Both the position numbers and the translations under genes were made by a program. From Lama guanicoe (Eukaryota), in assembly GCA_013239625.1 (NCBI GenBank), contig MU053588.1, forward strand, positions 149,988-213,987: 64,000 nt of DNA, read 5' to 3'. The notes beneath the pieces are model-generated. The model did not search any database. It worked only from the letters and a program-made list of their open reading frames with translations, and had not been told where the DNA came from. Position 1 is the first letter of the stretch. Each line of letters opens with the position of its first letter. Positions 17,970 to 32,740 of this stretch are shown here, in pieces.

Positions 17970-18345
17970 CCACTCCCGCATCGTGCCTTGGGGGAGGGGC
18001 TTGGAGCGCGCCCCGCGCAGGGGCTTCTGGGAGGTGTGGTCCCGCCGTCCGTTCTCGGCGCCTTCTAGCGCCCGGGCATCGGCTGCTGGGCCTTCTGGGT
18101 CCGCCGCGCGGTTGGGCCTCGTTGGTTCCGTGAAACAGCGGCTCGTGAAGGCCCCGTGGCGGCCAGCATGCCCAAGACTCCCAGGCCTGTGGAGGTGAGT
18201 CCTCCAGTTTTACTGGCCGAAGGCGGCGGAAGTAGCCAGGGGTCCCCGGATCGTGCGAAAGGGGAACGGGGAAAACCGAAGGTCTGGGGGATCGCGGAAA
18301 ACCGAAGGTCTGGGGGATCGCGAGGTCTAAGGGGCGACGCAGGGG
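17970..18345 (+). promoter_or_regulatory. CpG-island promoter / exon 1 of the unnamed KRAB-ZNF gene (donor GAG|gtgagt at 18194/18195)
   Basis: CpG-dense and GC-rich, with GC boxes, ETS-like CGGAAGT (~18226) and a consensus 5' splice site. Confidence 0.75.
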
Positions 18346-19427
18346 ACATCTTGGTTTTATTGAAGTGAGGGTGGATGGCTGCGACTGTGTGTCTCCAGGC
18401 ATCCTTGGGTTGGGGGGTTGGAGACAGGGCTCTTTGGATTTAGGGGACAGCCCACTTTGGTTTGGGGAGAAGGCAATGAGGCAGGGTCCAGGGGTTTAGT
18501 GGGAGCTTCCCGGGCTGTATGTTCTTAGGTGTTTGTAGGGGCGGCTAGATCTGTGCATTCTCAGGTTGGGGAGATGTGGGGAGAAGTTAGGAAGTGGGTG
18601 CCCCTGGGTTTGGGATGTAGTGGGGGTTTTGAGTCTTGGTCTTTAGGGTGACAGTGTGTTTTGGCTTTCCTGGATTTGGAGGTGTGACTTGGACTTTGAG
18701 GTGAGGGAACAGAGTCTTGTATCTCCACTTTTGTTGTAGATGCTCCCATGAGACCACCTTCACCTCTGACTCAGAGGGCTTTTTCTATAAGTGAGCCAAG
18801 GGGTGTGTTATCAGAGCGATGGGCAGACGGCCCTTGACACCAGGGTGGGCTGTTCCCCCAGCCAGGCCTGCTGTGAATTGCCGAAGGACTGCCGCCACTT
18901 TGCATCTGAGAAACCCCAGAGCTCAAAGGGTCAGCAGCTTCTCTAAGCTCCCAGGTGCTGTGGAGTTAAATGACCTTCTCCTGGGAACTTGCCTCTGGGG
19001 TAGCAAAGCCAGGAGTATCACTCCTATAATCACCTCCTTATCTGCAAAAGAGAATTCTCCATACTCTTGGCCAGTAAAGGCTGTAGGGGAGTTGTTTTTC
19101 CTTTGTCGTCTCAGTGGAAGTTAGAGTCCCAGGTGTTAAAGGTGGCGCTGTCCCAGTTGTGAATTTGGTATCACAGGTAACAGCTGTATCTCTACAAAGC
19201 CCCTCTGAGTGCAGAGGCTGCAGGATGTGCATGCTCTATGTTTTCCTTGGTCCTGTAGGTCAAGGTTGGCTCCTGACTCTTTTCTTTTCCTTTAGATTTA
19301 AGAGTGGATCTGCAGAGATTGGGTATGAGGATTTCTGGCATGTGACCCAGTCCTCACTGCTCCTGGTTCCCTATTCTGCCCTCTTTGGAATCTTCTGGCC
19401 CTGAGAGATATGCGAAAAGAGGAGAAA

Positions 19428-19460
19428 ATGGCCCCTGAGTTCCTGGCAGCAAGACCCCCA
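19428..19460 (+). CDS. Candidate start exon of the unnamed KRAB-ZNF (exon 19296-19460; MAPEFLAARPP)
   Basis: Acceptor ttttcttttcctttag|, AAAATGG Kozak context, 33 coding nt, phase-0 donor |gtgagt. Typical pre-KRAB exon. There is an in-frame upstream ATG at 19410. Confidence 0.6.
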
Positions 19461-19878
19461 GTGAGTGGGATTTAACCTTTTTTACGCAGTAATTTCTGTC
19501 CTGTTAGATGACGTGTTTATTCACTGCCTCAAAGCGCCTCAAAGCTCTAAGACAAACATGGAACTTGGGGAACTTGGTGCAGGTTTGGGAAACTCTAGAG
19601 GAAAGCCCACTCTCCCTCCTCAGTTTACCCCCATCTTTCCCCCATCACTGTGTGCTCTTGGCACACCTTAACCTTTGCCCCTACTTTCCATTGATTTAGT
19701 CCACAAATGGTTTAGCCTTCCTTCCACATGCCCCGATGTGTGTTATGTGCATTGAGAAGTACTGTCTTTCCTCGGGGGCTTGTAGACCTTGTTGAGGGTT
19801 TGGGGTTTTTTTGGTTTGTTTTTGTTTGTTTGCTTGTTCTTCCCTTACTGCAGTGGATTTTAAAATGTCAGTGGAAAT

Positions 19879-20020
19879 GGAGAGGATGTAGCTCAGTGGT
19901 AGAGTTCATGCTTAGCATGCTCAGGGTCCTGGGTTCAATCCCTAGGACCTCGTTAAAATAATTAAGTAATTAAATCAATATAATTACCTCCTCCCAAAAA
20001 ACAAAAACAATAAAAAAAAA
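19879..20020 (+). mobile_element. tRNA-derived SINE (Vic-1-like)
   Basis: A box tagctcagtgg, B box ggttcaatcc, AT-rich tail, polyA, TSD gtcagtgg. Confidence 0.85.
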
Positions 20021-20539
20021 GTCAGTGGTATTAAATTAACAAGAATTGCAAGAATAATACAACTAATACCTGTGTATCTTTCATTCACATCCATCAATTG
20101 CCAGCTTTTTGCCACAGTTACTTTACTTCCACCTCTATGTGTATATTCGTCATTTTCAGAATCATTTGAGAGTAAGTTGCAGACATTATGTTTCTTAGCC
20201 CTAATTACTTCAGCATGCATCTCCTAAAAACAAGGACAGTCCCTTAAATAATCATAGTATAATTCAGGAAATTTGACATTGATACAGTACTATCGTCTAA
20301 TGCCCAGCCTACAAGCAAAATTTGCCGGTTGTCCTAATAAGTTTCTTTAGGGCTTTTCTGCCTCTTTGTTACCTCTCTTTAGTCTCCTTTTTTTTTTAAT
20401 TAAAAAAATTTTGTTTTTCATCAATTTCATTTCATTGACCTGCAAATTCTTTAGTCTTCTTTAATCTGGGACACTTTCTCAGTGTTTCTTTGTCTTTATT
20501 GCTCTTTTGAAGATCAGTACATTTACATATACATTTTTT

Positions 20540-30138: not shown

Positions 30139-30606
30139 GTGAGAACAGCATCTTCCTGAGCCCACCTGCTCTCTCAGTGGTACTGTGGTGTGGAGTAAAT
30201 CCTAAGGGGATTTGTATTTGGAGGTCCACACATTCCATATCCCTTATGGTAGTAGGTATCAGATTTGAGAGTGCATAAAAATACCTGAGATGATGATTAG
30301 AAATGCCAGTTCCTGTCCAAATTAAAGGAGACTAAAGAGATAAGACAACTAAATGTGGTATGTTAGCCTAGATAAAAAATATTGAAGAAAAGAACACTAA
30401 AGGGGACATATTTGCAACAATTGGCATCGTTTGCAAATTAACTGTGGGCTAGATAGTAATACTGTGTCCATGTTAAGTTTCCTGATTTTGATGACTGTAC
30501 TGCGGTTACAGAAAAGAATGTCCCTGTTCTTAGGAAATGTACACTGAAGAATTCAGTCAGAGACCCACAGGCCTGTAACTTCCTCTCAGATGGTTTAGAA
30601 AAGAAT

Positions 30607-30633
30607 TGTGTGTGTGTGTGTGTGTGTGTGTGT
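30607..30633. repeat. (TG)n microsatellite
   Basis: Direct read. Similar tracts at 31018-31040 (TG) and 52278-52298 (CA). Confidence 0.95.
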
Positions 30634-31200
30634 ATGGAGAGAGAGAGCGAACATAAAGTAAATGGACCAAATATTAACAACTGGTGAGTATGGATTAGGG
30701 TTCCTTGGGCCTTCTGTGTATTATTACTCTTGCCATTTTTCTCTAAAATAAAAGATTATCCAGAAAAACCTATATCCCTAGGTTCCATCACAAGGGCTAC
30801 TGAGTCAGTGGATTTGGGATGGAGTCTGCATTTTTGACAAGTCTCTTCAAACCACACTTTGGGCAGTGCTCCTCCAGTGGACGCAGAATCATTACGGCCT
30901 GTTCAGCCCATGAGAGTTAGTACGGGTGTATATGACCAGCGGGCCTCTTCACCAAAGTCCCCAGAAACTCCTAGAACTTTTGCTTTTAGGAAAAATATTT
31001 CTTTGTTCATTTGTCTCTGTGTGTGTGTGTGTGTGTGTGTATGTAAGTAAATGTGAATCGTGATATTCATGCGTAATGGTTTTATTCATCTTTCTCAGTC
31101 TTCCGAGGACCTTCATGAATACCAAGGGATACGATTTGCCTGGAGGGAGGGTCCTTGTCCACATCACAGTGCCCTAATCCACGTCTTTCCCCTCAAGCAG

Positions 31201-31290
31201 GACATCTGCTGTCCAAACCAGAAATGATTTCCCATTTTGAACAAGATGATGTGCGGTTGGAGTTAAAAATACCAAGAAGCTCCTATTCAG
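31201..31290 (+). CDS. Divergent KRAB-B exon (GHLLSKPEMISHFEQDDVRLELKIPRSSYS)
   Basis: aagcag|GA ... TCAG|gtgag; 90 bp, frame-preserving. Retains KP..IS..EQ but lacks EPW. Confidence 0.85.
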
Positions 31291-31967
31291 GTGAGAACCA
31301 GTCAGCCAGGAGTAAATGGCATTGATAACCCTATGAATCCAGGAGGGCATGGGTAGCAATTTTAAAAATACATATTATTTTACTTTTTATGCTGACAATG
31401 GAAAATGTTTAACTATTTATTTGACTGGGGTTAAATATCTTTTTTAATAAAAGCATTAAATTCCCAGGCTCCTCAAATGCACTTGAAATCAGCCTTACCA
31501 TCTTATTGGTTCTTCGATAAAGCTTTTGACAAATAGTCACTCCATATTTGTATGAAAGTCATGTTTTTAATTTTTTGATAATTTATGCTTTGACAGCCAT
31601 AACCCACTTGTAGCTCACAGAATTTGACTTGGTGTTTCTAGTAACATGTAGTTTCCTTGATGAAGGAAAAGGTCCCCAGTATCTTCCCCTTCCCCTTTCT
31701 TTTTTTTTTCTTCACTTTTCTTTGTTTTGGAGGGTTTTTTTTAATTTTCTTTTTTATTTGTTTGTTTTTATTCTTTCTCATTTCTTCCCTTTCCCCTTGA
31801 AGCAAAAATGAAAAACAGTGTCAGGAGGACAGAGACCAGCAGCCCAACACTCTCCAGTCAGTGAAGTTTCTTTACCTTACCAGTACTGCCTGAGTGTGGC
31901 CAGAAGCACCGTGCAGCGTCAGGCAAAACCCCTGCTCACTTGCATCATCTAATTTTCTTTGTCCCAG

Positions 31968-32740
31968 GAGTCAGGGATGAGAATGATGGGATTCTCTCTT
32001 GGCGAGTATCTCCAGAAGAAAAACCCTGTAGCTGTCCCCAGAGTGGCCAAGACTTCAGCCAGCCCAGAAAGCTTGTAATTCACCAGCAAACGCAGAAGGG
32101 AAAGAAGCTCTCGCCATGTGACGGGTGTGGAGGAGCCTTCAGTGAAAGGACAACAGACCTTAACCTTCCTGTGCTCCTCCCAGGGGAAAAGCTCCACCAC
32201 TGTGTGGAGTGGTCCAGAGTCTTCAACTCAGGATCTGCTCTGAGAAGGCACAAGAAGGACCACATGGGAAAGAAAGCTCACACGTGTGAGGAATGTGGGA
32301 AGGACTTCAGCCGCAGCTCTAACCTCTCCATCCACCGGCAGGTACACACGGGTGAGAAGCCCTACAGCTGTGGTGTGTGCGGGAGGGACTTCAGCTGCAG
32401 CTCCAATCTCTCTATCCACCAGCGCATCCACACAGGGGAGAAACCCTTCAGGTGCCGTGACTGTGGCAAAGACTTCAGCCGCAGGGCAGCCCTGCAGATC
32501 CACCAGAGGGTCCACACGGGAGAGCGACCCTACTTGTGTGCTGTTTGTGGGAGGAACTTCAGACATTGCTCGGCCCTCAAGAGGCACCAGAGGGTGCACA
32601 CAGGGGAGAAGCCCTGTCTCTGTGCTGTGTGTGGGAAGGGCTTCAGTCAGAGAGTCCACCTGCAGACGCACCAGAAGATGCACTGTAGGGAGATGCGTCC
32701 AGGATTGCGCTCCGCGCATGCAGGTGCCTTCCAGAGCTGA
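31968..32740 (+). CDS. Zinc-finger exon of the unnamed KRAB-ZNF: 3 degenerate + 5 intact C2H2 fingers
   Basis: Acceptor ctaattttctttgtcccag|GA is in phase with KRAB-B. Open to TGA at 32738-32740; fingers ...SRSSNLSIH, SCSSNLSIH, SRRAALQIH, RHCSALKRH, SQRVHLQTH. Confidence 0.85.

Follow-up and report, generated by a model that had tools for sequence, protein, structure and literature searches.

A KRAB zinc-finger gene flanked by ZNF383 and an HKR1/ZNF875-type gene in Lama guanicoe, shortened by three fingers in camelids and probably under relaxed selection

The stretch of DNA analyzed here (the window, 64,000 nucleotides of Lama guanicoe contig MU053588.1) contains a real but ordinary KRAB zinc-finger gene, i.e. 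one for a gene-silencing transcription factor, that is old in mammals. Upstream of it, on the same + strand, lies the finger exon of ZNF383 (7016..8263), identified from named ZNF383 N-terminal records and from its 11 fingers, the number given in the human catalogue, which served as our control. Downstream, a 13-finger exon (61068..62816, + strand, with a KRAB-A near 55379) is consistent with HKR1/ZNF875 in finger count and order, the two features by which the match was made; human HKR1 likewise has 13 fingers, lies on the + strand and comes next after ZNF383 in the catalogue (PMC2443715). These neighbors support the placement originally predicted, with ZNF383 on one side of the KRAB-ZNF gene and a gene of HKR1/ZNF875 type on the other.

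All exons of the gene are on the + strand. The predicted CpG island is present at 17801..18500 and marks the promoter and exon 1, with a donor GT after 18194 and an alternative ATG at 18168 that would be in frame with KRAB-A; the equivalent of this exon-1 stretch is joined to KRAB-A in a grey-seal model. Exon 2 (19296..19460, with an inferred acceptor, AG at 19295) had been described as an ATG exon at 19428-19460, of which the ATG and the donor are real, but 19428 is the start codon and not an exon edge. Its frame is kept only by direct splicing to KRAB-A (340 aa), a join present in a seal model, and orca models begin with the same peptide; with the 59-nt exon spliced in behind exon 2, translation from ATG 19428 goes out of frame and ends at a stop. 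The exons listed in the original prediction were all recovered, but it had overlooked a coding exon at about 26775..26868 (5' edge approximate), with ATG 26820 and a phase-1 donor, that yields a 365-aa form and encodes an N-terminus common to bison, bear, Kogia, camel and colugo models. The pre-KRAB exon (27125..27183, 59 nt) carries ATG 27169 of the 334-aa form and is wholly coding in the 365-aa form. It is followed by the KRAB-A exon (30012..30138, 127 nt), an exon in the KRAB-B position (31201..31290, 90 nt), whose tandem AAGCAG acceptor coincides with one extra residue in some orthologue models, and a finger exon of 773 nt. The latter begins with a short spacer and three degenerate fingers (31968..32260), within which use of a further acceptor at 32184, also in frame, would produce a form of 262 aa with the same start as camel, whale and colugo models, and its open reading frame ends in a C-terminal tail and TGA stop (32684..32740). 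The first AATAAA 3' of the stop (33235..33240) is a candidate poly(A) signal, and a second lies at 33522.

Donor GTs at 18194, 19460, 27183, 30138 and 31290 and acceptor AGs before 27125, 30012, 31201 and 31968 were all confirmed, with no internal stop, as were the predicted lengths of 334 aa from ATG 27169 and 340 aa if 19460 joins KRAB-A. The KRAB and finger exons join in frame through these GT-AG sites, and the same joins occur in orthologue models. Of 24 sequencing runs, 14 from 5 studies were RNA or probably RNA (5 of them recorded as such) and contained 0.23-0.34 of the words of 30012-32900, against about 0.31-0.37 expected for an exon-only transcript, a comparison that serves as a hint only.

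The KRAB-A exon matches Pfam PF01352 with a score of 93 bits (cut-off 20.4), over profile positions 1-41/42 (the N-terminal KRAB-A box), and at E=7.5e-27 the match is therefore not due to chance; PDB matches were 7w5q (ZFP568) and 7z36 (ZNF93). Silencing by ZNF93 has been reported (PMC9753469) to need D8, V9, I11, F13, E17, W18, L21, Y29, V32, M33, E35 and N36. Eleven of these 12 KAP1-critical residues are identical in the window, the twelfth (I11) being V, and positions 40 and 43 are aliphatic, so that the camelid KRAB would be KAP1-competent as judged by its residues. The piece in the KRAB-B position, searched alone against Pfam, gave no match.

Behind the three degenerate fingers, the single 3' exon encodes five intact C2H2 fingers with 84-nt spacing and TGEKP-type linkers. 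Finger alignment assigns them to ancestral fingers 1-3 (RSNI, CSNI and RAAI; 32285..32515) and 7 and 8 (HSAR and QVHT; 32537..32683), with the end of finger 3 as the junction of a three-finger deletion. The recognition residues are those predicted, and they differ from all 11 upstream and 13 downstream fingers; because the fingerprints differ and orthologues are widespread, a recent duplication of a neighbor is ruled out. Eight intact fingers were counted in 6 of the 21 models compared, five in both camels and four in alpaca. Ruminants and whales carry eight, and an in-frame loss of fingers 4-6, exactly three finger units, is common to camelids. The description of the gene as apparently intact therefore stands for its frame, which is open over 334 codons without stop or frameshift, but not for its array, with only five of eight ancestral fingers left.

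The gene had been called unnamed, and a proper name is indeed absent, but NCBI already holds predicted models in camels, cattle, deer, whales, bears, seals and colugo under inconsistent '-like' names. Examples are XP_031312751.1 (Camelus dromedarius, 'zinc finger protein 558-like'), XP_070242849.1 (Bos mutus), XP_049558986.1 (Orcinus orca) and XP_062967965.1 (Cynocephalus volans). These NCBI/UniRef models share the exons, spacer, KRAB and finger order of the window gene, with 68-97% identity over the distinctive spacer; they differ from it in bearing names that point to unrelated human genes and, in ruminants and whales, in having eight fingers as opposed to the five of camels and the window. 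Six of them, in fallow deer, wapiti, yak, gray whale, alpaca and Bactrian camel, fuse the gene to ZNF383, e.g. XP_015103982.2 (Vicugna pacos), named 'zinc finger protein 224'. An ancestral protein of ~1065 aa was considered and rejected, as such models consist of ZNF383, a translated linker and this gene. In a six-motif scan, 42 of the 503 proteins examined carried two or more orthologue motifs, and the best fingerprint match of a non-orthologue reached 15 of 32 residues among 443 fetched proteins with three or more fingers. Synteny next to ZNF383 was shown for artiodactyls. Since orthologue-like models extend across artiodactyls, carnivores and colugo, the gene is ancestral, the first of the two options in the earlier proposal, and not lineage-specific, the second. 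Neither a search with the finger region of the orca protein (best 120 of 6916) nor one against representative sequences (best 150 of 11345) returned a new motif-bearing orthologue. Both were filled by generic finger arrays, and that no copies from primates, rodents, pig, horse, dog, bat or afrotherians appeared is therefore weak evidence. Disruptions mark the models of bear, seal and colugo. Among camelids, a frameshift affects the last finger of one alpaca model and a region 5' of the fingers in one Bactrian model. Either may be due to misassembly, since both fall within short repeats and a newer Bactrian model is open at its site.

Rates of change were taken from amino-acid counts in predicted models, a protein-level proxy and not dN/dS, and were compared with a baseline of eight ungapped blocks, picked by hand from predicted linker that is taken to be non-coding. 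By this proxy, the finger array changes more slowly than neutral DNA in ruminants but not in camelids. Over the five camelid fingers, the window and the Bactrian camel differ at 14/140 residues, against a camelid non-coding baseline of 27/423 (p=0.19), and the same fingers differ at only 2/140 between yak and fallow deer (p=0.003) and 3/140 between gray whale and orca (p=0.01), each vs the window-camel 14/140. Over all eight fingers, yak and fallow deer differ at 2/224 residues vs 13/158 in their non-coding baseline (p=0.0006), and the camelid control, the ZNF383 fingers, shows 0/310 differences (p=3e-7 vs baseline). KRAB-A+B differs at 2/70 residues between window and camel, below baseline but not significantly (p=0.41), and KRAB-A alone at 1/41. 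The original claim that an intact repressor was retained here is not borne out: the copy is reduced to five of eight fingers that diverge in a neutral-like manner, and the well-conserved copies are those of ruminants and whales.

By its sequence, the gene is the camelid orthologue of an old placental KZNF. The explanation to which we give somewhat better than an even chance is that, having lost three fingers and probably its original targets, it is under relaxed selection and at an early stage of decay. The ancestral protein comprises KRAB-A/B, three degenerate and eight intact fingers, and, judging from its family, is most likely a canonical repressor whose fingers could recognize up to about 24 bp of DNA and whose KRAB-A would dock KAP1/TRIM28 to bring in the heterochromatin machinery. 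Three fingers were then lost in the common ancestor of camelids through an in-frame deletion from finger 3 to finger 6, after which the parts of the array on either side of the junction would no longer line up with the original site. The camelid gene keeps an open frame and a putatively KAP1-competent KRAB, while its fingers change about as fast as non-coding DNA, probably an early stage of a decay that has advanced more in bears, seals and colugo and that seems to have run to completion in human. Against relaxed selection stand the 334 codons without stop or frameshift, the unchanged ligand and core positions, the low KRAB-A+B divergence, the possible origin of the two camelid frameshifts in misassembly, and the finding that changes in the number of fingers among primates are seen chiefly in functional genes (PMC3126818).

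The same observations could be read as re-targeting, i.e. as a protein that stayed functional after the loss of fingers 4-6 and was re-aimed, for example at camelid retroelements, by selection on its base contacts. Between window and camel, 4/20 base-contact positions have changed (0/20 for yak-deer and for gray whale-orca), while zinc ligands and core residues changed at 0/30 vs 14/110 elsewhere (p=0.04, post hoc); the key KRAB residues are kept, the deletion is an exact in-frame removal of three units, and functional primate KZNFs such as ZNF780B show internal finger loss (PMC3126818). However, linker and backbone positions (10/90) and the degenerate fingers (8/98) drift as well, the changes in the camel and window lineages fall in different fingers, and frameshifted alpaca and Bactrian models exist. 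Furthermore, in three of the four base-contact changes an Arg has given way to Cys or His, a pattern that we infer to be one of CpG decay, and such replacements at contact positions usually weaken DNA binding under the recognition code. We hold re-targeting to be unlikely. Conversely, the gene could already be dead, an unprocessed pseudogene whose frame is open by chance after a recent loss of function, as might be suggested by finger divergence that is not below the non-coding baseline and by a window-alpaca difference of 5/298 residues plus a frameshift, similar to 2/126 in a non-coding block. This is doubtful in view of the canonical state of all listed splice sites, the open five-finger frames in both camel species and the window, the zinc ligands, all of which are kept, and the single KRAB-A difference from camel. 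An ordinary, fully constrained repressor whose role is unchanged from that in cattle and whales, nearest to the earlier reading, would agree with the open frame, canonical exons, intact KRAB and five intact fingers, but is rendered improbable by the loss of three of eight fingers and by changes in the remainder about seven times more numerous than between yak and deer at the same positions. Taken together, the camelid gene is probably under relaxed selection, and its copy seems to be drifting.

In human, no coding gene had been expected between ZNF383 and ZNF875, and the human catalogue of 2008 agrees: it lists ZNF383 (11 fingers) and then HKR1 (13 fingers), with nothing between (PMC2443715). 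The predicted presence of LINC01535 in this interval was likewise confirmed (PMC4903003). The loss proposed for primates is not specific to them, the colugo, bear and seal models being disrupted too. As a tentative proposal, which we would sooner doubt than accept, an ancient KRAB repressor, almost unchanged in ruminants and whales, was inactivated separately in human, colugo, seals and bears and is now being lost in camelids, with the human lncRNA LINC01535, which is brain-enriched and cancer-associated, as its surviving promoter and 5' part. Of four published LINC01535 oligos (PMC6714211), none scored above shuffled background in the window, a weak test, the oligos being too short for this divergence. 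A literature search returned no paper on this gene and none tying LINC01535 to a zinc-finger gene, with subscription papers and bioRxiv supplements outside its scope, and LINC01535 is not named in the main text and one supplement file of PMC10195156 or in four supplement files of PMC5577775. If true, the proposal would provide a dated gene-to-lncRNA conversion, in which living coding orthologues allow the original targets to be mapped; descent of LINC01535 from the gene would make the origin of a lncRNA testable.

The significance of these findings is modest: the annotation is corrected for a separate gene to which automatic pipelines give wrong names or which they merge with ZNF383, and which, as a conserved ruminant and whale protein without a listed human counterpart, is therefore missed by human-centered catalogues. 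It also offers a natural series of KZFP birth and death, from eight constrained fingers to five drifting, frameshifted and absent. The gene belongs to the known KRAB-C2H2 family, and no new kind of system is involved. Like the canonical KRAB-A/B C2H2 repressors ZNF93 (PDB 7z36) and ZFP568 (PDB 7w5q), it combines a KRAB-A with KAP1-contact residues on a 127-nt exon and a single finger exon, but its array is short and its fingerprint unrelated to theirs. It shares with chimpanzee ZNF780B (PMC3126818) the in-frame loss of whole internal fingers and a patchy loss across lineages, and differs in that the case is found in camelids, is followed by neutral-like drift and has no listed human member. 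Finally, lncRNAs are known that arose from coding genes since lost (PMC5577775; PMC10195156), to which LINC01535, in the syntenic interval, would be a possible parallel.

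The KRAB-zinc-finger gene between ZNF383 and ZNF875 (window 17970-32740) has the two open frames of the original prediction, one of 334 aa (27169-27183 + 30012-30138 + 31201-31290 + 31968-32740) and one of 340 aa in which 19428-19460 takes the place of 27169-27183, each with 0 internal stops. Its GT-AG boundaries at the named donors and four named acceptors, including the donor at 18194 (GAG/GTGAGT), the CpG island (17801-18500) and the five intact fingers (RSNI, CSNI, RAAI, HSAR and QVHT) were likewise borne out, and the KRAB exon matches Pfam PF01352 (E=7.5e-27). Three degenerate fingers lie upstream of the intact ones in the finger exon, and the ATG at 19428 falls out of frame when the 59-nt exon (27125-27183) is also spliced in. 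An additional in-frame exon ending at 26868, with an ATG at 26820, would give 365 aa, and an in-frame acceptor at 32184 would drop two degenerate fingers, leaving 262 aa. Models (predicted NCBI proteins) of orca and dolphin splice exon 2 to a version of this exon (at 26.8 kb) that is longer at its 5' side, and the window's match to the longer exon (26579-26778) shifts frame near 26635. Just within intron 1, there is a 26-bp tandem duplication (18261-18322, 2.4 copies).

With the initial 135 residues encoded by the finger exon as query, we found close relatives at 68-97% identity, in 77 matches among 100 candidates and, in a second search, among the best 120 of 241. Among the matches listed, the relatives are proteins predicted by NCBI in alpaca, camels, bison, zebu, yak, deer, whales, bears, seals and colugo, carrying unrelated names ('ZNF558-like', 'ZNF568-like', 'ZNF420-like', 'ZNF224'). 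An alpaca model comes nearest among them, differing at 5 of 298 residues, which marks the window as South American camelid in type. Six models join ZNF383 to the gene via a translated linker and so show that the two genes are also neighbours in deer, yak, gray whale, alpaca and Bactrian camel. This read-through, found in models of six species and spanning window 8263-18260, is most likely a prediction artefact, with read-through transcripts a possibility; the gray-whale linker may resemble a ribosomal-protein retrocopy. Judged by sequence alone, the carnivore and colugo copies appear orthologous on the basis of a common N-terminal exon, KRAB and spacer. On the mammal tree, copies in colugo and laurasiatherians date the gene to the boreoeutherian ancestor, so that of the proposed 'ancestral or lineage-specific' origin the first term stands and the second falls. 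An unnamed ENA record (P0004) matches the bovine orthologue up to finger 2 and has different fingers thereafter, and is probably a chimeric short assembly.

Finger number varies across the 21 predicted models compared with the window. Eight fingers (RSNI RSNI RAAI SS[A/M/T]R QA[N/S]L WKDI HSAR QVH[M/T]) are present in six of them (yak, fallow deer, wapiti, gray whale, orca and pilot whale), three ruminant isoform models stop at finger six, and two sperm-whale-group models at finger two. The Kogia and sperm-whale models that exit the finger exon after finger 2 (P0020, P0109) contain a peptide matching a window ORF at 43098-43424, which may be an alternative 3' exon. Bears (n=3 models) have three or four fingers, seals (n=3) between one and three, and colugo a single finger. 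In colugo and Weddell seal, the C-terminal tail of the model corresponds to an off-frame reading of the window's finger exon, indicating frameshifts in these automatic predictions; the bear models, also automatic predictions, have some fingers with zinc ligands missing and end off frame. Both camels have five fingers and the alpaca model four. Fingers 4-6 are absent from the window and the camels, and the deletion junction lies within sequence common to the ends of fingers 3 and 6, so they were lost in a single in-frame event in the camelid ancestor.

Within the five fingers in common, 14/140 residues differ between the window and Bactrian camel and 13/140 between the window and dromedary, compared with 2/140 between yak and fallow deer and 3/140 between gray whale and orca; tip lengths on a fixed-topology tree were greater for the window (0.045) and the camel stem (0.037) than for yak (0.008) and orca (0.007). 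As a neutral yardstick we used stretches translated in the fused models and presumed non-coding, taken as eight ungapped blocks after removal of the gapped and off-frame portions of the alignments. Camelid fingers were no lower than this yardstick (14/140 vs 27/423 for camel vs window, p=0.19), whereas ruminant fingers fell below theirs (2/224 vs 13/158, p=0.0006), as did the control ZNF383 fingers (window 7016-8263; 0/310, p=3e-7), which show 0-3 changes per 310 residues when camelids, ruminants and gray whale are compared. The gene's description as intact and retained thus holds for its open frame and not for constraint, given the loss of fingers 4-6 and a finger divergence not below the yardstick. 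Full constraint on the camelid gene is very unlikely.

By analogy with the family, each finger would contact about three bases of DNA, with KRAB recruiting KAP1 and heterochromatin; KRAB-A keeps 11 of the 12 residues named as needed for silencing in the relevant part of PMC9753469, with Ile11 replaced by Val in an alignment to ZNF93. Loss of three internal fingers would leave fingers 7-8 misaligned with the original target site; such shifts are discussed for primate KZNFs in PMC3126818. The covered part of that study places changes in finger number mostly in functional genes, a pattern by which the gene was probably alive at the time of the deletion. After the deletion, Arg at position -1 was replaced by Cys or His in window finger 2 and camel fingers 1 and 3; these replacements resemble CpG decay and would be expected to reduce binding. 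Re-targeting of the camelid repressor is a reading we consider unlikely, and recent death of the gene is less likely still. Frameshifts in one alpaca and one Bactrian model coincide with short repeats and could be erroneous, the newer Bactrian model being open. Against pure decay, the window and both camel species have an open frame, zinc ligand and core positions changed at 0/30 vs 14/110 elsewhere (p=0.04, post hoc), and KRAB-A+B differs at 2/70, which is not significant vs baseline. We lean, with slightly better than even confidence, towards relaxed selection on the camelid gene, whose spliced transcript is a prediction.

The intron 5' of KRAB-A holds a full-length 7SK match on the minus strand (27845-28151; Rfam RF00100, 218 bits, model 1-331), probably a retrocopy. 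Four low-scoring minus-strand tRNA matches of one repeat family (23473-23544, 24595-24666, 39906-39976 and 43512-43591) are probably tRNA-derived SINE heads. Two more CpG islands (39051-39850 and 45251-46300) lie between the gene and the KRAB exon that follows it at 55379, and one of them may be the promoter of HKR1, which is now called ZNF875.

The expectation that human has no protein-coding gene in this interval agrees with a supplementary table of PMC2443715, which includes a pseudogene column and in which ZNF383 (11 fingers, +) and HKR1 (13 fingers, +) occupy consecutive rows, ~91 kb apart; the window neighbours also have 11 and 13 fingers. LINC01535 sits between ZNF383 and HKR1, with CNS-enriched expression, according to the section of PMC4903003 concerned. 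As a check on its possible descent from the gene, four LINC01535 oligos published in PMC6714211 were compared with the window and scored no higher than shuffled sequences, as expected for 19-23-mers at such distance. The portions covered of PMC11190762, PMC8112154, PMC7354912 and PMC8947867 hold nothing on its origin, and it is not named in the text and files searched from two studies of lncRNAs that arose from lost genes (PMC10195156, PMC5577775).

A literature search, with most subscription papers outside its scope, found no description of the gene. What this analysis adds is a set of orthologues, the loss of fingers in camelids, the constraint contrast and a possible, testable link to LINC01535, for a gene that belongs to a well-known family, has existing database predictions and conforms to the familiar pattern of gene birth and death.
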